From Stenotrophomonas sp. (lineage in GTDB: Bacteria > Pseudomonadota > Gammaproteobacteria > Xanthomonadales > Xanthomonadaceae), in the NCBI GenBank assembly GCA_032112995.1, contig DAMCTY010000004.1:27335-91334 (forward strand): a stretch of DNA of 64,000 nucleotides. The letters are read 5' to 3'. This document shows positions 29,623 through 56,454 of the stretch, in pieces. Every line of letters starts with the position of its first letter. The first letter of the stretch is position 1. The notes below the pieces were generated by a model. It searched no databases and was not told the DNA's origin. It saw only the letters and a list, made by a program, of their open reading frames with translations. Made by a program: the position numbers and the translations under genes.

Positions 29623-31260
29623 TTACCAGCGTGCGCTGATGCGGAAGTCGGCGCGTACGTTGTCCTGATCCTTCAGCACCTTGTCCAAAGGATGCCCAAG
29701 ATCCAGGCTGTAACTGTAACGCTTGGCGAACTGGCCGTTCAGGCCCATGCCCACGCTGCTCAGGCTGGCAGATGCCGGGAAATCGCCATGCACCTGACCG
29801 CGGTCATAGAACACGTAGACATCATGCGCCTGCCGATAAGGCCGGTGCAGTTCCACACTGCCGTAGTAGCCGCGTACGCCGGACAGGGCACCACGCACGT
29901 AACCACGAACGCTGCCAATGCCACCCACCTGGAACAGGTTGCCCGAAGGCAGGAAATCGCCGTTGCTCAGCTGCCAACCCAACTGCGCACGATACAGGAA
30001 CCCGCTGGCCCCCAAGCGCTGGGTCCAACCGGTTGTGCCGTTGGCGACTGTGAAGCTACGCCCCTGCTTCAGGGCTTCATCTGTACGTATCCGCGAAATG
30101 CCCTGGTAGAACGTCCAATCGTAGCCATCATTGCGATAGCCCGTGTTGACGCCAACCGTGGCGACCGTGGAGTTTGTTTCCGACACGCGGACGTCCGCGA
30201 TGTCCGAGGTGGAATTGCTGCGCGAGATGCTGGCCACCGTGGACAGCAACCAGTTCTGGGTGGCGACCCAAGGCTGGGTATAGTCCAGGCCGTAGTTGGT
30301 TGATTCCCCGGTGATGTCGAGATCGCGGTATGCGCCATCGATGATGTTGATCTGGTTGCGGGAAACACTTACGCCCAAGCGTCCGTTGCGCTTGTTGACG
30401 ATGCCCGAGTACGCCACCCGTCCTTCCAGGCCGCCGCGCGAATAGGCTACCGAGCCGGACAGAAGGTCGTTGAGCCCTGCCAGGCCCCAGAACTGTCCCT
30501 GCACGCCAAAGCGCTCACGACCTGTGCTTTCCACGCCTGAGTTGTCAACGAAAACACCCCAGTTGTGGCGGTCGGGGGACCGCGCCATCAGCACGATATC
30601 GGTCTGCCCCGCAGCCTCGCCCGGCCGCAGCAATGCACGCACCTGCATGTCGCTGGTGCGGTTCAGGTATACCAGATCGTCGCGCAGTTGGTCTGCCTGC
30701 ACCACACCGCCGGCTTCCTGCTTGACACGCCGCAGCACAAACCGCTCTGGAACCCTACCCTCGCCCTCCCCGGTCACCAGCAATCTGCCAAGGCGCCCCT
30801 CCAGCAGGGTGACCACCACGGTACCCCCGGATAGATCCTGCTGCCGCAGAAGTGCTTTGGCAGTAGTCACGCCCTTGGCCTGGTAGGCCGCATTCACCTC
30901 CCCCACCAGCGCATCCAGCTCGGCCATGCTTACCTGCCGCCCCGCGTAATGGCTACGCACAAGCGCCAGCGTCTGCGTATCCAACAGTTCTGACGTCGGC
31001 TCGAAGCGCACGTCCTGAAGGAGGAAGCTCACACCCTCCGCCTTGGCATCGGCCGCCGGTGCCTCCTGCGGCACCGCCTGCAGCGGATCGATGACCGGCT
31101 TGCTCGGTTGCAACGGCTGGCGCTGCTCGTAGTAATCATCGATGCGCTGCGTGGTCTGCCCGCCATCGGTCGGAACCGATTGGGCCATGGCCATGCAGGG
31201 CAGCAGCGCGCCGCCGATCAGAAGCAGGCTTCGATACATCTTCAAATCCCCATGTTTCAT
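29623..31260 (-). CDS. ShlB/FhaC/HecB-type two-partner-secretion outer-membrane transporter (TpsB)
   Basis: Signal peptide (MYRSLLLIGGALLPCMAMAQ), POTRA-like region (LLQDVRFEPTSELL..., VVVTLLEGRLGRLLVTG), and a beta-barrel with the L6 motif FQVGGIGSVRGY and a terminal ...RISARW. The ATG at 31260 overlaps the TpsA stop (TGATG). The ATG at 31239 is an alternative; the track start at 31263 is TTG. Confidence 0.9.
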   Translation of the reverse strand: MKHGDLKMYRSLLLIGGALLPCMAMAQSVPTDGGQTTQRIDDYYEQRQPLQPSKPVIDPLQAVPQEAPAADAKAEGVSFLLQDVRFEPTSELLDTQTLALVRSHYAGRQVSMAELDALVGEVNAAYQAKGVTTAKALLRQQDLSGGTVVVTLLEGRLGRLLVTGEGEGRVPERFVLRRVKQEAGGVVQADQLRDDLVYLNRTSDMQVRALLRPGEAAGQTDIVLMARSPDRHNWGVFVDNSGVESTGRERFGVQGQFWGLAGLNDLLSGSVAYSRGGLEGRVAYSGIVNKRNGRLGVSVSRNQINIIDGAYRDLDITGESTNYGLDYTQPWVATQNWLLSTVASISRSNSTSDIADVRVSETNSTVATVGVNTGYRNDGYDWTFYQGISRIRTDEALKQGRSFTVANGTTGWTQRLGASGFLYRAQLGWQLSNGDFLPSGNLFQVGGIGSVRGYVRGALSGVRGYYGSVELHRPYRQAHDVYVFYDRGQVHGDFPASASLSSVGMGLNGQFAKRYSYSLDLGHPLDKVLKDQDNVRADFRISARW

Positions 31261-34200
31261 CAATTGGGTGCCCCCAGGTTGAGCGCATCCCTGTCCGACG
31301 TGATGACGTCCCCACCGAGGTCGATATCCAGACGCAATTCGGGCGACCGGTCTTCGTAGGCGGGGTCAAGTTGCAACATGCGCCCCATGTAACGCAGGGC
31401 GGCTTCACCGAGATAATTCATGTTGCTGTCGATGTGCTGGTTGTTGTAGTTCGGGCTTGTGATTCGGAACCCATCGTTGAAGCGAACGACGTAGGCATCG
31501 GTATCGAGGTACACACCATCTGCCGACAGGCGGAAGTTGCGGCTGGGCTGCATCAACTGCACATCGTATGGGCGCAACAGCGGGCTGTTGTTGTCCATCA
31601 ACAACTGCATCTGCGGCGTCCGCAGCGTCATGGTGTTTCCGATGTAGCCATTACCAACAGCAACCTTGCCTGCACTCGATGCCAGGTAGGCATCCACCGC
31701 GCCGAGCTGGTCGATCAGCCACGCATCGCGGGGATCAACCTCGACAATCACCTTCCGCGCTACGCCATTGTGATAGCCCGTCAACGTGGTCGTCAGCGGC
31801 CCCGTGCCGTTGGACGACTGCGCCACCTTGGCATCAATCATGTCGGCGGCCAGGCTCAGGCGGGTAGCAACGACGCCTTGCGACAGGCTCAGCTGATCGC
31901 GTGCGGCCAAGCTACCCGATGCGGCCGTCAGCAAACCACCCGTGAGCGATCCGCCCTGTGCATCCATGCTGGCAATCGTGCCAGCCTGCACCCGGTCAAA
32001 CACAATGCTGCCGCCGGAGATGATGGACTGCACTCCACCACTGTGGCCGTCTCCCACAGAAACGTCACTACCGGCCACCAGATCAACATCGCGACCGGCC
32101 ACATAGGCGCCCCAAGCCTGCTTGGCGCCACTGTTACCCACGATATCGACACCAGCGGTTGCGCTGCCGATGTCGATGGCGCCAGCCGCGCCGACCTGCA
32201 ACGAATCACCTGCGTTGGCCGTACCGCCGACCACATCGCTGCCACGGGAGGTCAAAGCCAGGTTGTTGCCTGCCTGTAGCGTATTGAATACAAGCGCGGC
32301 AGTAGATGCCATCTCGACATTGCAACCTGCCATCAACGCGCCGATGGCAATCGTGCCGCCAGCATCGCCGGTGAAGTTGCAGCCTGCCGTTACCTCATCG
32401 GCCTTCAGGTCCTTGCCGGCCACCCAATTGCCATTGGTCCCGATATGCGCCGTGCCCACATCGATGCTCTGGTGCGCATGCAAATTCATGGCGCCAGCGG
32501 TCGATGCCCGGATCATCGTCACGTTGCCGCCGGCCGTGGCCGACAGATCCCCTTCACCGTCGAAGGTGGTCACCGTGGTGTTACCAGCACTGGTCAGCAC
32601 GCTGTTGCCGGTCACGGTCAGCGTGTTGGCGGTCAGGTTATTGCCGGCATTCACCGCCAGCGCCTTGCCAACCACCGCCGTGCCCAGCACCACGTCCGAC
32701 TGTCCATCCAGCGTGGCGTTGCCGGTGACGTTGGCAGTAGCGATGGACAGCGTGTCCACCGCATCGGCCACCAGGTCGCTGCCAGCGCTGAGCTGCTGCA
32801 CATCCAGCGTGCTGCCCGAGGACAGCGTCATGCTGCTGCCGCTGTGCAACGTCGTGGCGGCCAGCGCCGCAGCCGACGTCACATCCAGCGTGCCCTGCGC
32901 CGACAGGCGGCCCAGCGTGCTGCTGCCCGTGCTGGCCAGGGTGGCGTTGCCGCCGACCGTGCCATCGTCCAGCTGCAGGTTGCCACCGGCCCTCAGCGCG
33001 GCGTTGCCATCCACCAGTGCAGTGGTCACGGCCATGTCACTGCCGCTGTCCAGCGAGGCGTTGCCGCCCACGTCCAGCGTATCCACCGTCATCGTCGTGC
33101 CAGCGGTTGCCGTGGCATCGCCGATAACTGCCAACGAGCCGATGGTGCTGCTGCCGGTGCTGGCCAGGGTGGCGTTGCCGCCGACCGTGCCGTCATCCAG
33201 CTGCAGGTTGCCGCCGGCCCTCAGCGCGGCGTTGCCATCCACCAGTGCAGTGGTCACGGCCATGTCACTGCCGCTGTCCAGCGAGGCGTTGCCGCCCACG
33301 TCCAGCGTATCCACCGTCATCGTCGTGCCAGCGGTTGCCGTGGTATCGCCGATAACTGCCAACGAGCCGATGGTGCTGCTTCCGGTGCTGGCCAAGGTGG
33401 CGTTGCCGCCGACCGTGCCGTCATCCAACTGCAGGTTGCCGCCGGCCGTGGTCGACAGGTCCCCTTCACCGTCAAAGGTGGTCACCGTGTTGTTGCCAGC
33501 ACTGGTCAGCACGCTGTTGCCGGTCACGGTCAGCGTGTTGGCGGTCAGGTTATTGCCCGCATTCACGGCCAGCGCCTTGCCGACCACCGCCGTGCCCAGC
33601 ACCACGTCCGACTGCCCGTCCAGCGTGGCATTGCCGGTGACGTTGGCAGTAGCGATGGACAGCGTGTCCACCGCATCGGCCACCAGGTCGCTGCCAGCGC
33701 TGAGCTGCTGCACATCCAGCGTGCTGCCCGAGGACAGCGTCATGCTGCTGCCGCTGTGCAACGTCGTGGCGGCCAGCGCCGCAGCCGAGGTCACGTCCAG
33801 CGTGCCCTGTGCCGACAGGCGGCCCAGCGTGCTGCTGCCCGCGCTGGCCAGGGTAGCGTTGCCGCCCACCGTGCCATCGTCCAGCTGCAGGTTGCCACCG
33901 GCCTTCAGCGCGGCGTTACCATCCACCAGTGCAGTGGTCACGGTCATGTCACTGCCGCTGTCCAGCGAGGCGTTGCCGCCCACGTCCAGCGTATCCACCG
34001 TCATCGTCGTGCCAGCGGTTGCCGTGGCATCGCCGATAACTGCCAACGAGCCGATGGTGCTGCTGCCGGTGCTGGCCAGGGTGGCGTTGCCGCCTACCGT
34101 GCCGTCATCCAGCTGCAGGTTGCCGCCGGCCGTGGCCGACAGATCCCCATCACCATCGAAGGTGGTCACCGCGGTGTTGCCAGCACTGGTCAGCACGCTG

Positions 34201-37200
34201 TTGCCGGTCACGGTCAGCGTGTTGGCGGTCAGGTTATTACCGGCATTCACCGCCAGCGCCTTGCCGACCACCGCCGTGCCCAGCACCACGTCCGACTGCC
34301 CGTCCAGCGTGGCATTGCCGGTGACGTTGGCAGTAGCGATGGACAGCGTGTCCACCGCATCGGCCACCAGGTCGCTGCCAGCGCTGAGCTGCTGCACATC
34401 CAGCGTGCTGCCCGAGGACAGCGTCATGCTGCTGCCGCTGTGCAACGTCGTGGCGGCCAGCGCCGCAACCGACGTCACGTCCAGCGTGCCCTGCGCCGAC
34501 AGGCGGCCCAGTGTGCTGCCGCCGGTGCTGGCCAAGGTGGCGTTGCCGCCTACCGTGCCGTCGTCGAGCTGCAGGTTGCCACCGGCTTTCAGCGCGGCAT
34601 TGCCATCCACCAGTGCGGTGGTCACGGCCATGTCACTGCCGCTGTCCAGCGAAGCATTGCCGCCCACGTCCAGCGTATCCACCATCATCGTCGTGCCAGC
34701 GGTTGCCGTGGCATCGCCGAGCACTGCCAACGAGCCGATGGTGCTGCTGCCGGTGCTGGCCAAGGTGGCGTTGCCGCCCACCGTGCCATCGTTCAGCTGC
34801 AGGTTGCCGCCGGCCCGCAGCGCGGCGTTGCCATCCACCAGTGCGGTGGTCACGGTCATGTCATTGCCGCTGTCCAGCGCGGCGTTGCCGCCCACGTCCA
34901 GCGTATCCACTGTCATCGTCGCGCCAGCGGTTGCCGAGGCATCGCCGAGCACGGCCAACGAGCCGATGGTGCTGCTGCCCGTGCTGGCCAGGGTGGCGTT
35001 GCCGCCCACCGTGGCATCGTCCAGCTGCAGGTTGCCGCCGGCCGTGGCCGACAGATCCCCTTCACCGTCAAAGGTAGTCACCGTGGTGTTACCAGCACTG
35101 GTCAGCACGCTGTTGCCGGTCACGCTCAGCGTGTTGGCGGTCAGGTTATTGCCGGCATTCACCGCCAGCGCCTTGCCGACCATCGCCGTGCCCAGCACCA
35201 CGTCCTGCTGCCCGTCCAGCGTGGCATTGCCGGTGACGTTGGCAGTAGCGATGGACAGCGTGTCCACCGCATCGGCCACCAGGTCGCTGCCAGCGCTGAG
35301 CTGCTGCACATCCAGCGTGCTGCCCGAGGACAGCGTCATGCTGCTGCCGCTGTGCAACGTCGTGGCGGCCAGCGCCGCAGCCGACGTCACGTCCAGCGTG
35401 CCCTGTGCCGACAGGCGGCCCAGCGTGCTGCTGCCGGTGCTGGCCAAGGTGGCGTTGCCGCCCACCGTGCCGTCATCCAACTGCAGGTTGCCGCCGGCCG
35501 TGGCCGACAGATCCCCATCACCGTCGAAGGTGATCACCGTGGTGTTGCCAGCACTGGTCAGCACGCTGTTGCCGGTCACGGTCAGCGCGTTGGCGGTCAG
35601 GTCATTGCCGGCATTCACCGCCAGCGCCTTGCCAACCACCGCCGTGCCCAGCACCACGTCCGACTGTCCATCCAGCGTGGCGTTGCCGGTGACGTTGGCA
35701 GTAGCGATGGACAGCGTGTCCACCGCATCGGCCACCAGGTCGCTGCCAGCGCTGAGCTGCTGCACATCCAGCGTGCTGCCCGAGGACAGCGTCATGCTGC
35801 TGCCGCTGTGCAACGTAGTGGCGGCCAGCGCCGCAGCCGACGTCACGTCCAGCGTGCCCTGCGCCGACAGGCGGCCCAGCGTGCTGCTGCCCGTGCTTGC
35901 CAGGGTAGCGTTGCCGCCCACCGTGCCATCGTTCAGCTGCAGGTTGCCACCGGCCTTCAGCGCGGCGTTGTCATCCACCAGTGCAGTGGTCACGGTCATG
36001 TCACTGCCGCTGTCCAGCGAGGCGTTGCCGCCCACGTCCAGCGTATCCACCGTCATCGTCGTGCCAGCGGTTGCCGTGGCATCACCGATAACTGCCAACG
36101 AGCCGATGGTGCTGCTGCCCGTACTGGCCAGGGTGGCGTCGCCGCCCACCGTGGCATCGTCCATCTGCAGGTTGCCACCGGCCGTGGCCGACAGATCCCC
36201 TTCACCGTCGAAGGTGATCACCGTGGTGTTGCCAGCACTGGTCAGCACGCTGTTGCCGGTCACCGTCAGCGTGTTGGCGGTCAGGTTACTGCCGGCATTC
36301 ACCGCCAGCGCCTTGCCGACCACCGCCGTGCCCAGCACCACGTCCGACTGTCCATCCAGCGTGGCGTTGCCGGTGACGTTGGCAGTAGCGATGGACAGCG
36401 TGTCCACCGCATCGGCCACCAGGTCGCTGCCAGCGCTGAGCTGCTGCACATCCAGCGTGCTGCCCGAGGACAGCGTCATGCTGCTGCCGCTGTGCAACGT
36501 AGTGGCGGCCAGCGCCGCAGCCGACGTCACGTCCAGCGTGCCCTGCGCCGACAGGCGGCCCAGCGTGCTGCTGCCCGTGCTTGCCAGGGTAGCGTTGCCG
36601 CCCACCGTGCCATCGTTCAGCTGCAGGTCGCCACCGGCCTTCAGCGCGGCGTCGCCGCCCACATCCAGCGTATCCACCGTCATCCTCGCGCCAGCGGTCG
36701 CCGTGGCATCGCCGAGCACAGCCAACGAGCCGATGGTGCTGCTGCCGATGCTGGCCAGGACGGCGTTACCGCCTACTGTGCCGTCATCCAGATGCAGGTT
36801 GCCACCGGCCGTCAGCGAGGCGTTGCCGCCCACGTCCAGCGTATCCACCATCATCGTCGTGCCAGCGGTTGCCGTGGCATCGCCGAGCACGGCCAACGAG
36901 CCGATGGTGCTGGCGCCCGTACTGGTAAGGGTAGCGTTGCCGCCTACCACAATCGTATCGGCATCCAAGTCAGCTGTCGTTGTCACCGACAGATCGCCAC
37001 CACTGGTAATGTGGCCTGCCTGCAACGAAACGGCATCTACGACCGCATCTGCACCCGAGATCAACTCGTCGGCGACCAGATTGCCCGAGCTGGACAGAAC
37101 AAGATCTCCCGCCAAGGCATCCAACGTGCTGATGTCTGCACCATTCGGGAAGCTCAGGTAAATGCCGCCAGCGGCGCTGCGCACCAACGCCAACCTCCCA

Positions 37201-40200
37201 ACATCCACGACGACAGGATCGCTGACCAGGCCTACGCCGTTGCCCGCCAACATCTGCGCGCTGACATTGGCACCTCCGGCCACGTTCACCACCGCATCGC
37301 CGTTGCCACGAATGGCGCCAGCTGCATTCAGATCAAGTTGATTGCCCGCTTCACTGCCGCTGACGGCAAGTCGGCCAATGGCAATATCCTTGCCCGACCG
37401 AATCGACACGATCTTGCCAGCGGTGAGGCTGCTCCCGGCCCCCATTGCGTAGTCACCGGCATCAATCAAAACCTGGCTACCCGCTTCCACTACTGCCCCG
37501 GCTCCAATATGGGCAGCCTGCACGGAAAGCAGGCGCAGCACCTCATCCACCTGCGCAGAGCCAAGGCTCAGCTTCTTGCCTGCATTCAGCTGCGCTGACG
37601 CAGCGCGCGTGATCTCACCAACCGCAACATCCCCGTTGGGGGCGCTTACGCTCAAATCGCCAACAGCATCAACCGTTGCGATGTCGACGCCGGTGTATCC
37701 AGTAACGGTGACATCGTCACCCCCTTCAAGCACATCCGCCGTCACTCGGCCCAGGCTGGAGAGCAAACGCAGCTCGCCCCCGGCGGTGATGGTACCGATG
37801 GGCATGTCCGTCTTGCTCGACAACAGCACGCTGCCACCGGCATCAGCCGACAATTGGCCACCGGCGATGATGCGCACGGCAAGGCTTTCACCATTGCTGG
37901 ACTCGTCCCGGATATCACCACTGACCGTCAGCTGGATATCGCGACCGGTGAGGACCGCCACGTCCTTCAGGTAGGAAAGAAGGCCACCGCCCGCAACCGT
38001 CAACACCAGATCCTGGTTGGCATTGACCAGGCCGACACGCAAGTCACCCGCAACCTGCTCAAGCCTTGCATGGTCACCCGCATTTGCAAGCAACAGTGTT
38101 CCATTCACCTGCACACGCAATGGCTGCGTGTCGGTACCGGTGATGCTGCGCAATGCCGAAATGCTGAGGTCCTTGCCGACGCGCAGCGTCGTAGCCGTGT
38201 TACCCGCGACATCGGTGATATTCCCATCGCTGCCGATACGCGCCGACCCGCCGCTACTGAAATGCTTGAATGCCAACGATGAGATCCCGTAAAGGAACGC
38301 ATCCCTGCCAATCGTCGCATCAACACTTCCCTTGGCGTCGATGACCAGCGGCGAATTACTGTTGATCCGCAGCCTGTCAACCGCTGCACCATCACGAACC
38401 TGCTGTGCAGTCAGCACCTTGCCTGTGGCATCGAGCATTTCGACATCACCGGGCGTCGTTGCCAGGCGCATGGCCAGCGCGGTCTCGTCGCTGACATTTC
38501 CATTTTTCAGATCGGCCAGGCTGACGGTGTACTGCTTTTCAAGACGCCCCAGATCCTTGCTCGCGATCAGCGTGATATCGCGTCCCAATACCACGGGATC
38601 CATATTGAGTGCTGACCCGGCGGAAGGCTCCAATGCATTTGCATTGAATATATGCCGCAGCTGATCTTCGTCCCAGTAGGAATCCGTAGCCAGCCCAGCC
38701 AGTATCTGCGCCCTGCGTGCATCTGCAGGACTATTGGAAATATCCGTCAGGCTGTAGCGGTAGTCCTTGTCGTATGACGCAAACGCACCTTCCTGGGCCC
38801 AGTCGCTGCCAAACGCGTCAACGAACACGGCTTCCAGCCGGGCGTAGCGGGCCGCGAGATAGCTCACAACCCCTGCATCATCCAGGCTGCGCCCAGCATC
38901 CATCTCCGCCAGCGAACGGAACAGCGCAATGCCATTCGCACCAGGAACGTAACTGCCGTTGACCACGCCACCCAGTGCCTTCAACTGGTAGTACTCGGCG
39001 TAGCCGGCATCCACCTGGTTCTGATAACTCAAGATGGACTGCTGATCGGCACCTTGGCCCTTGAACAGTTTGAGGTTGTCACGCAGACCCGCCAGTTGGT
39101 CTTCCGAGAGGAAGCTCACATCACCACGCAGCGCCGCATTGAATATGGAGCCTGACGATGCCTGCAACAGTACGTTGCCGGTGGCGGATTCGACCCGGTT
39201 CACCCAGAAATCGCCCGCCGTGTCGTGCAGCCCGATATTGCCATTGGCATACGCCGTGACCAGCCCACCTTCTATCGAAGCATCATTACGCAGGGTTTCC
39301 ACCGCGCGAATCGTCATCACCGAACTGCCGTTGCCGCCGATGGCACCGTTTGCGCTGCGCAGGTCGATATTGCGGCCAACAATCGCCGTACCGGTAGCGA
39401 AGGCACTTGTGATGTTGCCGCGGGCATGCAACCACACGTCGCCAATCCTGCTGCCACGCTGTGCGTTGAGCGACACCTTGGCATCAGAGTCGACATTCAG
39501 CGCGATATCGCCCCCTGCGCTGGCAATGATGTTCCCTGCGGCAACGGTCTTACCCTTGTTGTCCAGATAAGAAACTATCTGGATATCCAGCGGGCTGCTG
39601 CCCACATCCGGCTTGGTCCCGGCAATGGTGCCTATGGTCCGGCCAGCGGACAGGCTCAGCTCGTTGGTAATGATCCTGGCGAATGGCGACGTGCTTTCGA
39701 TATCACCATTGACACTGGTCAGGAACGTCTTTCCGTCGGTGTTCTTCAACACACCGTTGATACGGATCGTCTCACCCGAATCCACGTCCAACAGACCGGC
39801 ATCATTGGTCTTGAACTGGATGGCGATTGGGTTGTCAGCCTTGGCCCTGTTGCTGACAACAAGCGTCCCTGACGTCGGAAATTCGAGATCCCAGTAGGTT
39901 CGCCATGTGCCACCGTCGTCGAACTGGTTCTTCGACGGGAATCCATAGTTGTACCTGCAGCCGTTGCTGTTCTTGCCGCCTTCGCAACGGTAGTTCACCC
40001 CCCAACCAGATCTCCGGGTGTCAAAACTGCCCCTGGTTACCGTCGATTCAAAAACCTTTCCACCAAGGCTGCTGCCGGTACTCGAATATGTCACGCCTGA
40101 CGTTTGCCACTGCTGGCCGTTCTCTACAACCCTTCCGCCAGCATCGATCCAATACCAGTTATCCGCGGTGCCAACACCCTTGTCGTTGAAGGTGACATTC

Positions 40201-43200
40201 CGCTTGATGCGCGCCGTCTGCGTCCACGACGCCACCATGCCGGACCTGGGTGCGTAGGCGTAGCTGCTCGCATCAGCAAGCTTCGTTACCCCAGCCGACT
40301 CCCAGTCTGCGGTATTGATCGCCCCCTGGTAGGCATTGAGCGAACCGTTCGTGTCTTTCACATACCACGTTGTCTTGTTCTGCTCCCTGTCGCGGATGGT
40401 GATCTTGCCCTCCGCACCGGTACCCACGGTGATATCACCCAATTGCAGGCCCATATCCGCCAGCTGGTTGTCGATGACAACCGACCCCTTGCCGCTGATG
40501 ACGTTCAGTGCACCGCTGGTGGAGGTACTGACAATACGGCCGTCCAGGGTGATGGAACCGCCGCCCTTTGCGTAGATATCGGGGACGACAAACTGGTTCC
40601 TGGCCGGGTCGAATTTCAACGCAATCTTCGTCGAAGACGACGAATTGGCCCTCACGAAGCTTTCGGGGACGTCAAACAGTCCAGTGCTTCTCGCCACCCG
40701 TTCGCCGTTCGCGTTTGTGTAGAAGAAACTTTCGACCCAACTGCGGAGCTCGCTGCTATTGCGGTCCAGAATGGCGGAATAGTCCACCGGGACGCCTGAC
40801 GTCAAGGGCACATTGACGTCAATCGTGGCGGCCTTGATGCTGATTCCGCCACCCGCCGTAACCCCCCCTGTACCGGTCTTGGGAACGGTCGAATTTGCCG
40901 CCGACGTCACCTGCGAAGGTTGGGTGGAGAAGGAAGCCACCAGCTCTCTGGCATTCACGACCGGCACATAGTTTGCAGATCCGGTGCTGTATTGTGACAC
41001 CTTGCCGCCGTCGTAGAACAAGCCCTTCAGGTCCGCCTGGGTGCAGTCCTTGTCACCAATCCGATAGCGGCAGGCACCATAGATATAGAGGCTCCCATAG
41101 CCATTGTTGTTGGTGCCCTTGTCGGCGCCTCGATAGAGCAGGTAGTCCGTCAGGGTCTGACCGTTGCGGGCAGCCGCATCCTTGTAGAGGTAGGTGGCAA
41201 TGTAGGCAGCAGCATCGTCCGCATTGGTGATGCCGGCAGCCACGCTCACCCGGTTCCACAACGTGCTTACCAGTGCGCCGCTCCAGTTGCCGGTACCGAG
41301 GTTGTAGACCACGTCTCCGTTCGGAATGTCGACCGAAAGCGACTCAACCTGCTGGGCGCCCGCACCATAGAAGCTGCCCATTGCATTGAAGATTTTCAGC
41401 GCCGCGCCCCTGGCGATGATATCGCCCGCGCCGACGATGGCTGATGCAGCCCCCACGTTGCTGATGGTGACCTTCGCGCCGCCCTGGCCCCTGTCCTCGG
41501 TCACCCGGATGCCTTGGGGAGTGTTGCTCAGGCCGGTGTACAGAACATTGCCACCACTGTAGTCCGGCATCACGATATCGCCAGCCAACAGCAGGTTGTC
41601 CGCGCTGTTGTTGGTGATGCTGATACTCGGCGAGCCCTTGGCAGTTATCGAACCGCTGCCGCTGATGTTGTTTCCGTACAGAATGACGTCGCCACCACCA
41701 GCAAACAGGTCACCAATGACCCAGGTATTGGTGGCCTTGTCAGATGCAACGTCGAAGTCCGTGGAACCGGAGTCATTGAACGCCTTCTTCAGTGCTGCGC
41801 TGCTATCGCGCCATGCCTCGAATTCAAGCAGGTCGCCGCCGCCGGCATCCTTTGTCAACTGGCCATTGCCATCTATGGTGATGTTGAGCTTGCTGTAGCG
41901 CCCGGCCACCACCGTTCCATCGACGATCACATCCCCGGTGTTCGTACCCGAGGTCTTATTGTCACGCACCGTAACCGGGATGAAACCGATCTGGTAGCCC
42001 GTGGCCGAGCCGTCCGCATTGCGGAACACATCATTGCCATAAGCACCCAGCGACACGAATGCGCCACTGAGCAGCTTGCTGTTCTGGGCAAGCGCCGTTC
42101 GAGCAGCACTGTCCACCGTGGAGCGCGCCGAAGAATCCGGAATGGCTACCAGGCCCTTGCTATACCCCAGGGCCACCGCGTTGCCAGCGATCCGCGAGCC
42201 GTTGCCATTCATCCTATCCATGCCAGCGGAGACGTAGGCGTTGTGCAGGGACTCAAGGCTCGCCCCTTCACCCACCTTGACATCCTGGTCCACCTTCAAA
42301 TTGACAGCCGCGTCCGCCTTGCCTACCGCAGCCAGGATGCCCCAGGTATTGACCAGTGCATTGGCACCCACATCGGCCTTGGCATAGGTACCGACGTTGA
42401 GCATGTAATTGCTCTGCAGCTTGGCGTTGGTACCAATAGTGACCTTGTTCACCAGCGTCGCATCGGCCTTGGCCTTGACGACCGCAACGTTGATCGCGCC
42501 ACCGGTGGTCAGACCCGCACGATCATCCGTGTTCGCGTTGGTAGCCGCCACGATATCCAAACCAACGGCATCGCTCCCGGTCGGAGTGCCGCTGGCGTAA
42601 AGCTGGGCGCCGTTGCCAATATCAACAGCACTGCTGCCGGCCAGTATCGTGGAGACCTGGGAGGCACTGCCGGTCAGGACGCCGCCGCCGGCGGCACTGG
42701 CGGCGAGCTTGCCGACGAGAACACTGTCGATATTGTTTTCGGTAGCCAGCCTGATGGAACTGTCCGAGGCAATCCGGGCCTTCTCGCCCACGCTCAGGAT
42801 GACGTCGGCCTGGACGTCATTCTCAGCGTTCGCACCGCTGGCGTTGAGTACGCCCGCACCGGTGCTGTCCGCGCTGGCGCCATATTTGGTGGAGTGCGTC
42901 GCAGTCGCCACAAGCTTGGACACATCCCAGTCAGCCAGGTCCCCGATGGCTACATCCGTTGTGCTCTTGGTTACCGTCCGGGCCAGCGATGCATTGCCGG
43001 CAATCAAGCCGCCAGTGCCCGCCGTGGCATCGGCGGTGTTCTTGTCCTCACCGCGTGCATTGAGCGTGACGGCCCCGGAAATCAGCCGAGTAGCGTCACC
43101 CACCCCTGCATGCACAGTGGAGGCGGATTCGGCGGTGGCCTTCACCACGCCAGCAGCCAGCAACCCGCCCACGCTGACGCCCGTGGCATCAGCGTTCTGG

Positions 43201-46200
43201 GAGCTCACATTGGAGGATGTGACGGTTACCGCTCCGCCGCGTTTATAGGCGCCCGCTACGTCCTCATCGGCAGCGCCAGTCACGCGCGCTCCGTCCATGA
43301 TGTCGGCGCTCACGGCATTGCTGCTCTTGGCGGTTGCAAATGAACCTGCGCCCGCAAGGTACAGACCACCGGAACCAGCAATGGAGCCGGCCTCCACCCC
43401 AGCGCTGGCAACGGAGGCAATCACGCTGACATTGCCTGGATTGCGCAGCTCGGCCTGCGTACCGATGAAGGCATTGACATCGGTCGTTGAGCTTGCGTTT
43501 GCCACCGCCGCGCCAACCGCTGCACCGATTGCAACCGCAGCGCCGATGGCATTGGCTGAAACGTCAGGCCTGGCGCTGGCATTGATCGAAACACCCCCCT
43601 TCAAGCCGGTGACTTTGCTGCGATCGCCAATGCCGGCCGTCACCTCTGAACCATCATGTGCCGTCGCCACCGCGCCGCTGGCCCCGGCAAGCACACCACC
43701 GGCTGCCCCCAACGCCGTTGCATCCACCGCGCCCTCGGAGCGGGCATCTATTGCAAGATTGGCAAAGCCGGTCAGGTTTGTATCTGCTGCCGTGCCGGCG
43801 CTCACACGCGCCGAACGATCCACGTCTGCGACAACCACGCCAGCGGCAAGCGCACCCGCTGCCGCGCCGATGGCGGACAGGTCCACGCTGCTGGCGTCCT
43901 TCGCAGCGACCTTCACGTCCTTGACGGTACCGGCCGACGCCATGGTTCCAGCAATGCCGGCGCTGACCGCCTGTTCCAGCCTGGCCACGCCTACCGCAGC
44001 GCCCACACCAACCAGGCCGAGAGCACCCGCATACACCTCCATATCAACAGCCTTGCCGCCTGCACCGTCGCCGGCATTGGCCTGCACGTCGATCAACGAG
44101 GCATCCACCTTGTCCGCTGCCAACGTAGCGGTGGTATTGCCATACAGCCCGGTGAAACCAAAGGCACCGCCCGCACCCACACCACCCACGCCGACACCAC
44201 CAACCCGGTTGAGGCTGCTCATTGCCGTCGAGGCATTGACCTTCACTTCCGTGGCCGCCAAAGCACCGCCACGAATACTGGCCTCAACCGTATCGCCGCG
44301 CCCGGACAGTGAACCCACATCCAGATTTCCGCGCTTGTTGAGCGCATCCAGATCACTGCTTGAAACCGTGCCCGAACCGGCCAACACGTCGGCGTCAACC
44401 TTGTCTTCCGATGCCACCGACTTCAGGTTGCCGAAGGTACCGCCCAGCTCCTTGCTGGCGTCGCCGCTGTCGCCCAGGCCAGATAGCAGCAGCGAGGCGG
44501 CAGCACCAATGCCAGTGCTCATGCCACCGCCGGCCGTGAGGGTGGTCATGTTGATGTCGCGGTCGGATCTGGCGTCAACAGAAATGCCGTTGGTCGCGGT
44601 TACCCCACTGTCCAGAATATTTGCCCGCACGGTGCTACCGAGGATGGCAATGGAGGCACCCGCGCCCACGCCGGTCCCCATCACACCCAGGCCGAAGCCG
44701 CCGGTGTCGGCGCGCAGCTTGAGTACGTCCTTCGCCGTCACATCGGCGCTGGTCGAGTCCACGGTGGCGTTATGTACGATCGCCTGCGTGTCGTTCTGAA
44801 GCAGGTGCAACTGCGCCATGCCAGCAATGCCGGTACCACCGGCACCTGCCGCCCCCAGCGCGACGCCGTTGAAGTCCGAGCGACTGTCCGCCGATACCTT
44901 CAGCGCATTGGCGACGTCTATCGTGGTTGCGCTGCCCGCCCTGCCAATACCCGCGTAGGTGACCGCACTGCCCATGTTGACCAGCGCGGCTCCGGCCACC
45001 GCAGCCCCCAGTCCCACGGCACCCACGCCGGCAACCAGCGAAGCGGCATTGTCGCTATCGGCCGACACCTGCAACGAGCCGCTGCGTGCCTTGCCGCCAG
45101 CCACCCGCGCTGTCGTATTGGTATTGAAATCATTGACCACCGCCGATGCGGCGCCGCCGCCCAAACCGGCAGCCATACCGATGACGATGGCGAGCGAGTT
45201 CTGGCTGCCAGCTGCATCAACCACCACATCGCCCTTTGCGTTGAGCGTCGCATTGTCGATGGATGCGAGGGCATTGCTGTCAAAGAAGTTCGTCGACAGT
45301 GCACCGGCGCCGGAGAAACCGCCACCGGCAGCCAGCCCGCCGACGTAACTAGTCGACGCCACATGGTGGCTGGCACGCACATCAACGGCCTGCGTTGCGG
45401 CAGCATCGCCCGCATCAGCGTCGTCGCCCGCCGCGCTTGCCAACCCTTGCTGGTTGATTCGTGCATCCTGGATGCTTGCCACCGTGCTGCCGGCAACCTT
45501 GTTGACGGCGGCCATCACGGATACGGCGGCACTTGCGATCGGCACCGTGCCGATCGCCGCACTTGCCCCGATCGTATTGATCTGTTGCGCGGTTGCCGCA
45601 TTCACTGCAACGCCACGCACGCCGACACTACCCGTACTCAGATCCACCGAACTGGACGCCATGTTGTCGGCATCAGTCTCAGTGCTGTGATTGTTCGCGG
45701 TCTTGCGATGCCCCCCATTTACCTGCAGGGCATCCCCCAGCGCCAAGGCCGTCACCTCGGTGTCGCCCCCCCGGATGATGGCCTCCGTCGTGCCGTCAAC
45801 CAGATTGACCACGGTACCCAAACCGATGCCGACGTTGCCGCCCACACCCACGCTACCGGCAAACACGTCAATGCTCTGCCTCTGGGCAGCCATCACGCCG
45901 ACGTTCTCCCGGGCAATGACCTTGGCACCGTCCTCGATCCGCGCCGAGACCGTGCCATCCATCTGGTTCACCGCAATGGAGGCCGCGCCACCAACCGTGC
46001 CGCCCCCGCCAATGCCGGCCGCTACGGTGCGTATACGGTTTCCATTTCCGCCGGCGGCTCCGGACGCATCGGCCTGGACCAGCAGGTTGCGGACACCCAG
46101 ATCCGTCGAATCGCCGCTGACCGATGCCGAGGTGGTGCCTCCAATATTGTTATAGGCGATCGCCGCGCCTACGCCCACGTTGCCGCCGATCGCCGCCCCA

Positions 46201-49200
46201 CCCGCCAGCGAGTCGATGCTGCGCTCATCACTGGCGCTGACGGACACGTCTGCGTCGTCGTTGCGCACGGTGCTGTCCGAAAGCAGCGCCGTTGTATCCG
46301 AAGAGATCAGGTTGGTGGTCACGCTACCGGCAACGCCTACGTTGCCACCGGCGGCACCCGAAGCGGCGATGGTCCGGATCAGGCTTTCGTTACCGGCAAC
46401 AATCTCGAGTTTCGACGCCCCGTCAAGTGCAGAACCGACGACAATCGCCGCGGTACGGCCGCCAATATCATTGACGCTGCTTGCGACGCCAACGCCCACC
46501 TTGCCGCCAGCACCCAGCGCACCACCGAGCGAATAGGCCGCGCCCTTGGTCTGGGCATTCACATGCACATCGCCTGTCACCCCGGCGCCATGCGCGCGGA
46601 CTCCCTCGATACGGGCCTCCGTCGCACCATCCTTGATGATATTGGTGGCGTTGCTTGCCGCGATGGCCGCATCGCCGGCAGCGGCACCGGCGATGGCCAG
46701 GGTCTTGGTGATGGCGTCGGAATCCGCCCTCACTGCGAGCTGCTCGGACACCTCCAATGCCGAGCCATCAATGGCTGCAGCGGTGGTGTCCTTGATGGTC
46801 GCCACGTTGATTGCGGCGCCAATCGCTGCGTTGCCGGTGGTGCCCGCAACCGCACCAGACAACGTGTAGATACGCGAATCGTTGTCCGCCCCAAGCAGCA
46901 GATTCTTTGCTTCCAGCACGCCGCCGTTGAGCGTGGCCTGCGCGGTGTTGCCGATCTCACTCCAGCCCACCGAGCCCTGTACGGCGACATTGCCAGCAAA
47001 GCCGCCAGCCACCGCACCAGACAGGATCTTGGCATTGTTGGCCGCGGAGATCGCGGCATCATCCTGTACTTCCAGCAGCGCATCCTGTGCATTGGCAACC
47101 GTTGTGTTGCCAATGTCGTTGATGGTCAGTGCAGCCCCCACTGCCACCTTGTTGCCTGCGGTCAATGCACCGGCAAGTGAGCCGATGAACGAGTCGTCAC
47201 TGGCATCCAGGCGGACGTCGCGCGCCGCGAGCTCGGCACTGGATCCCGCGCCCTGGGTATCGTGCCCGACGTTTACGGTGGTCTGGTTCTGGATGGCGTT
47301 GTAGGACGCACTGCCGACGCCGGTGAATTTTCCGCTACTGGCACCTACTCCCACGCTGACAGCGATGATCTGCGCGTTGTCGCGGGCAGCCAGATTGATG
47401 TCCCCGTCGTCAGCTCGGATGCTGGCGTCATCCACGGTCACACTGTGGCTGTTCTTGATGGTGTTGTAGGCGAAGGCAACGCCCGCATTGTTGTCACTGG
47501 CCTGCATCATCCCGGCAACGGCAATGATCGAGCTCTTCGCATTGCCATCGCGGCCAATGGCATCCACCTTGGTATCGTCATTGTCGTCGGCGTTGGCTCC
47601 TACGTCCGTATCTGCCAGGCCAGAACCACAGTAGTCAGCACTACCGCCGGTTCCATTGTCTCCATTGCAGTTGTTGCCAGCGCTGCCAAGATCGTCATCG
47701 CTGGCCGTACCTGCATAGGCAGTGAGCGTACCCGCAATATCGATATCGGCGCCGCCAACGATGCGGGCCTCGGTGGTGTTGCCCACCTGGTTGACGAGGA
47801 CAGAACCTGCCAAGCCAATACCGCTGTCACTCTTGGAGGCACCACCAGCCGCAGCTGCGGCCACGATCCGCGAGGCATCTGCGGCGCGCACCGTGACGTT
47901 GTTAAGTTTTTGAACACTGCTGCCATCGATGGCAGCAGTGGTTACATCCTGAACTTCCGCATAGGTTACGGCGGCGCCCACGCCGGCGCGGCCGCCAAAG
48001 TAGAAGGCGCCGCCGCCGTTGGCTATTTTCGACTCGTTGACCGCCAAGATGTCGAGGTCACCAGCAGCCCCCTGCATGCCGGTCAGGGTTCCGCCCTGGA
48101 GCACGGCTTGCGTGCTGTTCTTCGACATGCCCACGGTCGCCGACACCGCCACTGCCGCAGCCTTGGCCTGATCGGTGGATGCATTGACGCCAACGCCCAA
48201 ACCTACGTTGACCTGCTCGCTCTCGTTGCGGGCGGTCAGCACCACATCCTTGGCATCGACGATGGTGGAATCGGTGATCCCAGCCCTCGTGGTGTTCTGT
48301 ATATCGGCGTAGGCGACGCCGCCGGCAATGGAAGCACTGGCTTCCTGCTGCCCCACCACAACCGACAATGCCCCGCTGATGCTTACCAGCAGGGTCTTGT
48401 TGAGGGCAGCCACGTCCAGCTTCAGGCCATTATTGGAGTGATCCTTGATGTTTGCGCTGCTGATATCTGCGGTGGTCTTCTGACGGGCACGGTTGACAGT
48501 TGCGCTACCTGACACCGCAACGCCGAACTTGGGCTTCTGCTCCCCGCCGGCCTGCCCTCCCTGTCCACCGCCATCCTCAGGCTTTCCCGAGCCCAGCAGC
48601 GACTTTGCCTTGTCGAAGTACTTGCCCAAGCCTTCATCGCCGGCCAGGCCAGCCTTCTCGGCCATTCCCTCCAGCTGCCCCACCTTGCCGGTAGCGCGGG
48701 ATTTCAGCTTGTCCAGGAAGCTCGGGTTGTCCGCGCTGCGCTTCTGCGCCGCCGCTTCGCTATCCCCCTGGCCGTACTTGTTGTCCTTGCTGCTGACCAC
48801 GCTGCCAGCTGCGGCAACGGCACCCGACAGGCCTTCGCTGTTCGCCGTCACTTCGAGCACGTCCGTACTGACCGAGCCCTGCTGTGTGCCCGCAGCGCCG
48901 GTAGCGAAGCCATCGGGGATCTGCCCGATGAAGGCGCGTGTATCCGTATCCATCTGCTGGTAGGCCACACTCAAACCCACCGATACGCTCTTGCTCATGG
49001 CTACTGCGCCGGCCACCGACCAGACAAACAGATCCTCGTCGGCACCTATAGCCACCGATTTCGCCACCAGCGAGGCCTTGTTGCTCACCCCGGCCAGCGT
49101 ATGGCTGTCCAGGTCCATGGCAGACGCCGTGCCATTGAGATTGAAGCTACCGCCCTGGCCGCTCTGCAAAGCCAGCGACACCAGGGTTTCCTTGTTGACC

Positions 49201-55834: not shown

Positions 55835-55860
55835 AGCCCCCCCCGATGCCAATCCCGCGG

Positions 55861-56454
55861 CTAACGCAGCTGCCGATTCAACCACGCCCGCGCGAAGCGC
55901 AGGTCACGGTCAACGGTTGGCGCGGACACGCCCAGCACCAGGGCGATCTCATCACGCTGCATGCCGCCGAAGTACGTCAGCTCGATCGTGCTCGCCGCAC
56001 GCGGCTCCATTTCGGCCAACTGATTCAACGCCTGGTGCAGGGCCAGCACGTCATAGCCGATATTGCTCTCTTCATAGGCCTGATCGGCGTGCGACAACGT
56101 CAGTTGCTCTACCCCGGCGCCGCGCTTGCCGGCAGCCCGGGCGCGCAGGTGGTCGACCAGCACCGACCGCATCTTCAGCGCGGCGATGGCCACGAAATGG
56201 GTGCGATCCTTGTACTCGGCGTCACTGCCGAGCAGGCGCATCAAGGACTCGTTGACCAGAGCTGCGGGCTGCAGGGTACCGTTGGTCTGCTGGGACAGAC
56301 GGTTGCGGGCAAGCTGCATCAGGTCCGAATACATGGCTTCGAACAAGTGCTCGCGCGCCTGCATGTCGCCTTGCTGCCAGCGATGCAGGAGTTGGGTGAT
56401 CTGCTGCCTGCTCAATGCTGCTCCCGCGTAACGGCCTGTGCCCCGTCCGGCCAA
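55861..56454 (-). CDS. ECF-type RNA polymerase sigma factor (Sigma70_ECF / kinase-associated type)
   Basis: Motifs: ITQLLHRWQQGD..A...L, HFVAIAALKMRSVLVDHLRARAAGKRG, and region 4 IALVLGVSAPTVDRDLRFARAWL. There is no in-frame ATG before ITQLL. Candidate starts are TTG at 56454 (track) or TTG at 56415, the latter preceded by GGGAG 5 nt upstream and preferred by me. Confidence 0.82.
   Translation of the reverse strand: MAGRGTGRYAGAALSRQQITQLLHRWQQGDMQAREHLFEAMYSDLMQLARNRLSQQTNGTLQPAALVNESLMRLLGSDAEYKDRTHFVAIAALKMRSVLVDHLRARAAGKRGAGVEQLTLSHADQAYEESNIGYDVLALHQALNQLAEMEPRAASTIELTYFGGMQRDEIALVLGVSAPTVDRDLRFARAWLNRQLR

Follow-up and report, generated by a model that had tools for sequence, protein, structure and literature searches.

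An array of 19-residue-coil cassettes in the predicted rod of a giant LktA-type TpsA exoprotein of Stenotrophomonas

Near-identical repeats that vary in copy number are a familiar form of repeat evolution in surface fibres, and the closest described parallels to the array discussed here are the 19-residue repeats of FHA and the 228-residue repeats of EtpA. Our subject is a stretch of 64,000 nt from a Stenotrophomonas sp. genome assembly (GCA_032112995.1, contig DAMCTY010000004.1, positions 27,335 to 91,334; the whole of it is called the window below), and in it the tpsA gene of a giant two-partner-secretion (TPS) exoprotein, the 3' part of which holds 14 near-identical cassettes. An earlier note on this DNA had read the cassettes as whole multiples of a 19-residue coil, exchanged by recent recombination. 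We consider it likely that the array forms the homogenised core of the beta-solenoid rod of a giant TpsA of the LktA/FxxPxG type, and that it changes by whole 19-residue coils and undergoes concerted evolution.

FHA/FhaB of Bordetella pertussis has regions of 19-residue repeats, and its long rod has been modelled as a beta-helix (Makhov 1994 and Kajava 2001, as cited in PMC5422565). The window protein is likewise a TpsA with a TpsB as its presumed exporter and a long rod built on a 19-residue repeat, here according to AlphaFold2 and lag analysis, but it has no Fil_haemagg or Fil_haemagg_2 match in Pfam scans, its TPS domain is of the FxxPxG and not the NPNG type, and the gene order is tpsA-tpsB. 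The FHA repeats are moreover imperfect and degenerate, whereas those of the window are cassettes of 3, 4 and 8 coils that are 91-98% identical. EtpA has, according to the accounts in PMC5422565 and PMC10284417, four 228-residue repeats. The likeness here is that of a TpsA adhesin with a C-terminal rod of large, directly fused multi-turn repeats, thought to come from internal duplication and recombination; EtpA, however, has one repeat type four times over with about 25 residues per turn (228/9), while the window protein has two or three cassette types interleaved as 14 units on a strictly 19-residue coil, and beyond the TPS domain no sequence relationship between the two is detectable.

With the LktA-family adhesins, among them the leukotoxin of Fusobacterium necrophorum, the window protein shares an FxxPxG TPS domain and tandem repeats of about 53 residues, in both cases above the curated cut-offs (NF012204 and NF012206). 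LktA of F. necrophorum has 3241 residues, but the window protein is about twice as long, and of 1.84 billion representative proteins only 169 have its 19-residue cassette rod and C-terminal module. The self-associating autotransporters TibA, AIDA-I and Ag43 have beta-helical passengers with repeats of about 19 residues and use type Va secretion, whereas the window protein is of type Vb; TibA is also the sole PDB sequence match to the profile of the C-terminal flank of the array, a marginal one (E = 0.0066). We know of no near-identical multi-coil cassettes described in these autotransporters. Tandem, near-identical, in-frame stalk repeats with concerted evolution, strain-variable copy number and trouble in short-read assembly are found in BadA of Bartonella, in the streptococcal alpha C/Rib proteins and in the staphylococcal SasG/Aap proteins. 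The repeats of those proteins are independently folding domains or coiled-coil segments, while in the window array the unit of change is a single solenoid rung, so that sizes are quantised at 19 residues and cassettes of different size can interleave. Bacterial adhesins are well known for expanding repeats, for concerted evolution and for stalks that vary in length between strains, so the present case leaves current understanding unchanged.

Anatomy of the cassette array and its 19-residue coil

The array lies in one minus-strand open reading frame (ORF) that has 6959 codons when counted from the first possible TTG. The start is probably the ATG at 52073, which gives 6937 residues, and a public gene call of equal length and with the equivalent start exists in GCA_032100465.1 (contig DAMDJN010000003.1). 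The gene, the rod and the units of the array are as follows.

31260..52139, minus strand: giant TpsA exoprotein ORF (ORF list; public 6937-aa gene call)
31740..37397, minus strand: predicted beta-solenoid rod with 19 residues per coil, about residues 4915-6800, approximate limits, with the cassette array as its probable homogenised core (lag analysis, AlphaFold2, in-register rows)
32496..36941, minus strand: cassette array, 14 units, 78 coils, 1482 residues (protein parsing, identities, hidden Markov model)
36771..36941, minus strand: unit 1, B', 57 residues, 3 coils
36600..36770, minus strand: unit 2, B', 57 residues, 84% nucleotide identity to unit 1
36144..36599, minus strand: unit 3, A, 152 residues, 8 coils
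35916..36143, minus strand: unit 4, B, 76 residues, 4 coils
35460..35915, minus strand: unit 5, A, with a 310-nt exact stretch in common with unit 3 that includes the tail of the preceding B or B'
35004..35459, minus strand: unit 6, A
34776..35003, minus strand: unit 7, B
34548..34775, minus strand: unit 8, B
34092..34547, minus strand: unit 9, A
33864..34091, minus strand: unit 10, B
33408..33863, minus strand: unit 11, A
33180..33407, minus strand: unit 12, B
32952..33179, minus strand: unit 13, B
32496..32951, minus strand: unit 14, A, the last nine or so codons of which diverge into the unique flank

The units run B' B' A B A A B B A B A B B A when the translated protein is divided at its junction motif, and a hidden Markov model built on the cassette copies gave the same unit map. 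The reading frame is unbroken through all 14 units, and the roughly 4.4 kb of the array encode 1482 residues, that is 78 x 19 with remainder 0; B' has 57 residues (3 coils), B has 76 (4 coils) and A has 152 (8 coils). The earlier note had this order, these sizes and their being multiples of 19 right, with coordinates that were 6 nt off, although the 20 units in its list of checks are a slip at odds with its own count of 14. Direct reading also bears out its statement that B' equals B without exactly 19 residues, namely DSGSDMTVTTALVDGNAAL. The landmark 32-mer GTGGTGTTACCAGCACTGGTCAGCACGCTGTT, searched with up to 3 mismatches, occurs six times with no more than 2 (32575, 33487, 34171, 35083, 35539 and 36223, in each case nine below the position first given) and with the same spacings of 912, 684, 912, 456 and 684 nt, where shuffled sequences lead one to expect 0 matches. 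Independently of this, the periods that Tandem Repeats Finder assigns to the array are 228, 456 and 171 nt.

Nucleotide identity is 92.8-97.6% among the A copies (11-33 differences per 456 nt) and 90.8-98.2% among the B copies (4-21 per 228 nt), and the two B' units are 84% identical. The impression that copies differ by a handful of nucleotides thus fits the closest pairs but not most of them. A 134-nt core is invariant in all six A copies. The junction GGNLQLDDGTVGGNATLASTGSST, which had been thought common to all cassettes, is more diverged where the first B' meets the second and has 0-3 variant residues at the other 12 places; heads and tails of 70 nt are common to the cassettes. Stacking the 78 coils gives the consensus GNATLTSGGNLTVxTLxVG. 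A glycine codon opens 59 of the 78 coils, typically as the first of a near-constant G-N-A stretch (GGC AAC GCC), and often it follows the glycine that closes the preceding coil. On the plus strand, two long antisense ORFs (32122-37161 and 32445-37598, 1679 and 1717 residues) run over the array.

Between about residues 4900 and 6700 of TpsA, lag analysis finds multiples of 19 and no other period. The AlphaFold2 model of the last A cassette with the C-terminus, made from a nine-sequence alignment, has a predicted local distance difference test score (pLDDT) of 95-99 from residue 1 to about residue 330, where every 19-residue period has one strand of 5 residues and one of 8, over about 17 coils, 8 of them in the cassette and about 9 in the flank that otherwise looks unique; for its last 170 or so residues the model is not confident. 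The model made for B-B-A-B from the single sequence reaches a pLDDT of 76 and has the same 19-residue period. The predicted structures, which are all-beta solenoids, therefore support a 19-residue beta-solenoid coil, and of the claim that this is the beta-helix of FHA the period stands, although the name fits in a broad sense only because Fil_haemagg is not matched. Besides the match to TibA, PDB sequence searches gave only a marginal one to FwdC. The rise of a beta-helix is about 0.48 nm per rung, so the 78 coils would contribute about 37 nm to the fibre, and an array of 25 coils, as in the conspecific contig L013 described below, about 12 nm.

Divergence within the array and its counterparts in other species

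The pooled proportion of differing synonymous sites (pS) within the array amounts to 0.10 (A) and 0.13 (B), and the synonymous divergence (dS) is 0.03-0.25, while the adjoining C-terminal region compared between species has a pS of 0.55-0.63 and a dS of 1.0-1.36. Synonymous positions are thus similar among the copies, as had been noted by eye, but not identical. The A cassettes are 93-98% identical to each other in the window, at most 84% identical to those of the closest species and 50-73% identical to the others. Were the repeats ancient and stable, with a fixed copy number and a similarity that comes from purifying selection on the protein only, one would expect such selection on the cassettes, and the ratio of non-synonymous to synonymous divergence (dN/dS; 0.31 for A and 0.24 for B) agrees with that. 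The copies are, however, about five times less diverged at synonymous sites than the orthologous flanks, and each genome examined has a different copy number and different unit sizes. We find this explanation extremely improbable and reject it.

That recombination has acted on the copies is suggested by the four-gamete test, where 31 of the 91 A site pairs and 31 of the 45 B site pairs are incompatible. The 310-nt exact repeat, the two occurrences of which lie 684 nt apart (one A and one B) and cross a unit boundary, marks one recent event. Of the earlier proposal of recent recombination or gene conversion, the low dS relative to the flanks and the incompatible sites are in favour, while the tract test discussed below is not.

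With a C-terminal profile, eight loci (numbered with an L below) were found in Stenotrophomonas spp. and a Pseudoxanthomonas metagenome-assembled genome (MAG), at 56-73% identity, and two further metagenome contigs were obtained separately. At all these loci A-type cassettes stand immediately before the conserved C-flank, but their number and size vary. L010 has one unit, L009 has 114 + 114 + 152 residues, L007 five units of 152, L011 (S. humi DSM 18929) units of 152, 114, 152, 152 and 152, and L006 ten units, each of 152 or 171 residues; L004, from the closest species, has a two-coil leader, an A, a B, a gap and an A. Taken over these species and the conspecific assemblies, arrays have 1 to 14 units of 38, 57, 76, 114, 152 or 171 residues. 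Written in rows of 19, each array holds a single register from the leader coils to the flank: the 114-residue units are coil 6 fused in register to coil 8, and those of 171 residues have one extra leader-type coil. The comparison of cassette order that the earlier note had called for thus reveals differences in number, size and arrangement with the register kept, and length changes in whole-coil steps, as it had proposed, are what these arrays display.

Cassette B is found only in the species of the window and in L004. Its first and last coils resemble coils 1 and 8 of A (13/19 and 14/19), and its coils 3-4 resemble the leader coils of L004 (13/19 and 12/19). Since both cassettes occur in L004 they must predate the split from that lineage, and the present similarity of the copies is therefore due to later homogenisation or re-expansion.

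Further away, the 169 relatives that a profile search found among the 1.84 billion representative proteins include several giants with homogenised arrays of their own before the same C-terminal module. P0013 has (38, 38, 76 residues) x 3 in the same 19-residue register, whereas more distant relatives have periods of 118, 160, 170, 174 and 214 residues, which are not multiples of 19. The giant TpsA proteins P0012, P0013, P0014, P0017 and P0025 (5638-7083 residues) have the same C-terminal module, and the internal repeats before it are strong in P0012, P0013, P0017 and P0025 and weaker in P0014; the periods of P0017 and P0025 are 214 and 118 residues. Metagenome contigs were scanned with the protein flank and with an exact 33-mer of the last unique coil, in both cases without a match, and a homologue search with the unique pre-array flank also came back empty, probably since low-complexity words had filled the list of candidates.

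Conspecific assemblies and the short-read problem

Among conspecific assemblies the TpsB protein occurs unchanged on 21 contigs and SapC on six, and the flanks are 98-99.98% identical to the window. At least nine conspecific contigs stop within the array: six in the last A cassette (unit 14, at window positions 32552-32875) and, from the other side, one in the first B', one in the first A and one in unit 9. L001 (GCA_002469325.1), a public MAG contig almost identical to the window, has four runs of N and 449 fewer bases in the array, L014 has two runs of N, and there are N gaps in the arrays of L002-L005 from other species. The array routinely breaks short-read assemblies, a collapse that had been foreseen. 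In the conspecific L025 (JGI 3300014608, Ga0121386_100060) the TpsA call stops at 5254 residues inside the first A with about 3 kb of contig beyond, which suggests a frameshift, gap or mis-join in the array. The public gene calls for L001-L003 list spurious genes on the opposite strand and only a 3' fragment of TpsA of 436-499 residues, and for that reason the giant gene is largely missing from protein databases.

Two conspecific contigs carry another arrangement. L013, a MEGAHIT contig of 531.6 kb, has the array B' B A [B coils 3-4] A, in all 25 coils, and its TpsA of 5930 residues is shorter than that of the window by 1007 = 53 x 19 residues, the whole difference being inside the array. L015 ends in a chimeric unit of 114 residues (6 coils) that joins coils 1-2 of B to coils 5-8 of A. 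The novel joints (coil 8 of A to coil 3 of B, and coil 2 of B to coil 5 of A, from samples ERZ27245288 and JGI 3300011847) have, by eye, only about 11-14 nt of exact homology, centred on GGC AAC GC, and some of them lie at internal coil starts, so that the proposed exchange at shared junctions is a good description of the cassette junctions but does not cover every joint. Because the joints share so little sequence and the longest internal exact repeat of L013 is 58 nt, assembler chimeras are an unlikely source of them, provided that k was at least 21 (k is known only for L013, where it was 141); for the same reason the k = 141 assembly of L013 is self-consistent. The array apparently differs between strains in whole turns. 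The variation in length that had been predicted between strains is apparently seen in L013 (25 versus 78 coils) and in the chimeric unit of L015, but these are all short-read metagenome assemblies.

It is possible, though we lean away from it, that the array exists but that its copy number, its order and part of its near-identity come from short-read metagenome assembly, by way of repeat resolution, bulge collapsing and polishing. The gaps, missing bases and broken contigs just described would be expected in that case, as would trouble with exact repeats of up to 310 nt. On the other hand, the block A B B A B A was recovered independently in L001 and in L014 over 2.0-2.3 kb, in the order of the window wherever they are assembled and with 99.5% identity to it, and both contigs also have the initial B' B' and the terminal B A; the reading frame is intact through 14 units; and similar arrays occur in isolate contigs free of N, such as that of S. 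humi DSM 18929.

Several observations weigh against a homogenised solenoid core that changes by whole coils, and they are best considered together. The window is itself probably a MAG, on which the exact order and homogeneity depend, and with exact repeats of up to 310 nt and the 134-nt core in all six A copies, order and copy number are verifiable only by long reads. The short array of L013 could be a collapsed assembly. At ten sites within about 2 kb of the array (33624, 33629, 33630, 33648, 33723, 33995, 34014, 34384, 34407 and 35283, in window positions 33265-35303), L001 and L014, assemblies of essentially the same strain, have a common base that is not that of the window, while the flanks in the same comparison differ at 1 of 11,443 and 3 of 13,440 sites. 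At nine of the ten the window has the base of all the paralogous copies, a consensus pattern that counts in favour of an assembly origin but fits either gene conversion in the lineage of the window or consensus collapse during assembly or polishing; if the latter is true, the 134-nt invariant A core and the identities quoted above are slightly overstated. A permutation test of the GENECONV kind for long concordant tracts was not significant after multiple testing (best p = 0.03-0.05), and gene conversion as opposed to repeated unequal exchange is for that reason not demonstrated. Finally, Foldseek searches of the PDB with both structural models found no significant neighbour, the weak matches being mostly beta-solenoid or beta-helix proteins.

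The tract test would also suit a simpler history, in which a few unequal crossovers produced a recent burst of duplication without ongoing gene conversion or raised variability. The arrays of other species are more diverged internally (73-92% identity in L006 and 71-90% in L011), which suggests that arrays can age without homogenisation, and the restriction of cassette B to the species of the window and its closest relative would fit as well. Against it, four-gamete incompatibilities are frequent, A and B are older than the split from L004 (dS about 1.0) and yet the copies differ by a dS of about 0.1, and the arrangement differs among conspecific assemblies. No nested block pattern fits the distances either, since B10 and B13 differ at 4 sites and the adjacent A11 and A14 at 33. 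We think it unlikely that a burst is all there was. Duplication of higher-order blocks, for example (A B B)n, was considered and rejected, as the pairwise distances do not nest.

Secretion family, proposed mechanism and meaning

The remaining features of the tpsA-tpsB pair are these.

51183..51896, minus strand: TPS secretion domain of the FxxPxG type, with FFVDPHG at ORF residue 178 (Pfam PF05860, NCBIfam NF012204, motif search)
43074..48476, minus strand: degenerate LktA-type tandem repeats of about 53 residues, approximate limits (NF012206; lag 53-55)
31263..31739, minus strand: conserved, non-solenoid C-terminal module, about the last 160 residues of TpsA (Pfam and PDB searches, AlphaFold2)
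29623..31260, minus strand: TpsB outer-membrane transporter gene, 545 residues (Pfam; public gene calls)

Judged by its sequence, the protein is a TpsA exoprotein of type Vb (two-partner) secretion in the LktA/FxxPxG subfamily, and it is neither a member of the FhaB family proper nor a CdiA, because Fil_haemagg, NPNG and CdiA pretoxin motifs are all missing. A TPS domain is recognised in the first 400 residues (Pfam PF05860, 49.4 bits against a cut-off of 33.5), and the N-terminus matches NCBIfam NF012204 adhes_FxxPxG, the "leukotoxin LktA family filamentous adhesin", with 122.4 bits (cut-off 60), while TIGR01901 adhes_NPXG is borderline (29.5 versus 29.1 bits). A motif search of TpsA found no NPNG or NP.G, and has F..P.G at residue 178 instead. 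Neither Fil_haemagg nor Fil_haemagg_2 was matched at E <= 0.1 when the protein was scanned whole and in pieces of 600-900 residues, the smaller pieces being used since Pfam scans of pieces of 3000-5000 residues missed even the TPS domain. A putative Sec signal peptide was recognised by eye (MPRPAGLALAIGSVLGVALPLSAWA|AGG). In the N-terminal half NCBIfam NF012206 LktA_tand_53 matches 5 + 12 = 17 stretches with 99.7 and 240 bits (cut-off 50); this second repeat system is far more degenerate than the array and gives a lag signal of 53-55 at residues 1600-3000.

The tpsB gene follows directly downstream, its start overlapping the stop of tpsA, and its product scores 87.9 bits for ShlB, 52.8 for POTRA_2 and 30.8 for Omp85. 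The C-terminal module of TpsA has no match in Pfam or the PDB and is modelled by AlphaFold2 with low confidence; it is kept among species, for example in its VEVDPRDAW and AYVVRF motifs, and is uncharacterised in the TpsA clade. The neighbouring genes are those for SapC, a Ser/Thr kinase with TPR repeats, RecQ, a ferritin-like protein and HrpA. Directly upstream of tpsA and on the same minus strand are the SapC-family gene (52182-52934) and the gene for that kinase (53087-55885), to which related contigs add an extracytoplasmic function (ECF) sigma factor gene; SapC, the kinase and the ECF sigma factor may be regulatory neighbours of the TPS operon. A scan for promoters and terminators around the tpsA-tpsB junction gave nothing informative. 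In searches of the literature, neither this protein nor any LktA-type TpsA from Stenotrophomonas was found to have been described.

The size of the TpsA and its TpsB partner might also bring to mind the toxins of contact-dependent inhibition, in which case the repeats would be the FHA-1/FHA-2 regions of a CdiA that delivers a C-terminal toxin. But TpsA has no VENN, ELYN, NEALV, DAMV or LYVN pretoxin motif and no Fil_haemagg repeat match, its C-terminal 411 residues are conserved at 56-73% across species and not polymorphic, and no small ORF for an immunity protein follows, the next gene being tpsB and then recQ on the other strand. The lack of a pretoxin motif, the conserved C-terminus and the lack of an immunity gene lead us to reject the CdiA explanation, which we hold to be very improbable. 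Family membership suggests instead that the protein may serve as an adhesin-like fibre, either on the surface or secreted.

How coils are gained and lost we infer from the shape of the array. TpsA would be exported by the adjacent TpsB. As most of the 57-nt coils open with the near-constant G-N-A stretch and the cassettes share 70-nt heads and tails, a misaligned pairing of any two 57-nt turns would be in frame and in structural register, and such pairing could be resolved by unequal crossing-over between sister chromosomes, by replication slippage or by deletion and duplication at short homologies. Exchange over long homology at the shared heads and tails of A and B would shuffle, add and remove whole cassettes, whereas rarer short-homology joints between non-equivalent coils could give rise to the new sizes of 38, 57, 114 and 171 residues. 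A product out of register presumably could not fold on export and would disappear, so that only whole-coil variants would be left to be seen. Repeated exchange, recent duplication or both would then keep the copies within a genome far closer to each other than to their orthologues, that is, in concerted evolution.

One could go further and regard the array as a contingency locus or molecular ruler, with coils gained and lost in register at high frequency, so that subpopulations have fibres that differ by tens of nanometres in steps of 0.48 nm and selection acts on reach or antigenicity. The glycine-rich G-N-A codon stretch at most coil starts would make such gain and loss fail-safe, and the arrays of P0013, P0014, P0017 and P0025, each homogenised on its own before the same C-terminal module, would make this a design principle shared by the rare clade of giant LktA-type TpsA proteins. 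We think this quite improbable as it stands, and prefer the more modest reading of a homogenised solenoid core that changes by whole coils.

The main immediate value of the finding is a warning for annotation and assembly, together with a neat system for length variation in a beta-solenoid. Public assemblies systematically break, gap or mis-call the gene, with fragments of 436-499 residues and spurious antisense ORFs in place of a protein of about 6,940 residues, and short-read comparisons of Stenotrophomonas surface proteins will under-report and mis-size TpsA. At the same time the array is a clean natural example of a continuous beta-solenoid that changes length without losing its fold, in steps of one 19-residue rung and with cassettes of 2, 3, 4, 6, 8 and 9 rungs among relatives, and it offers a tractable system for asking whether the length of the rod matters in a type Vb exoprotein.

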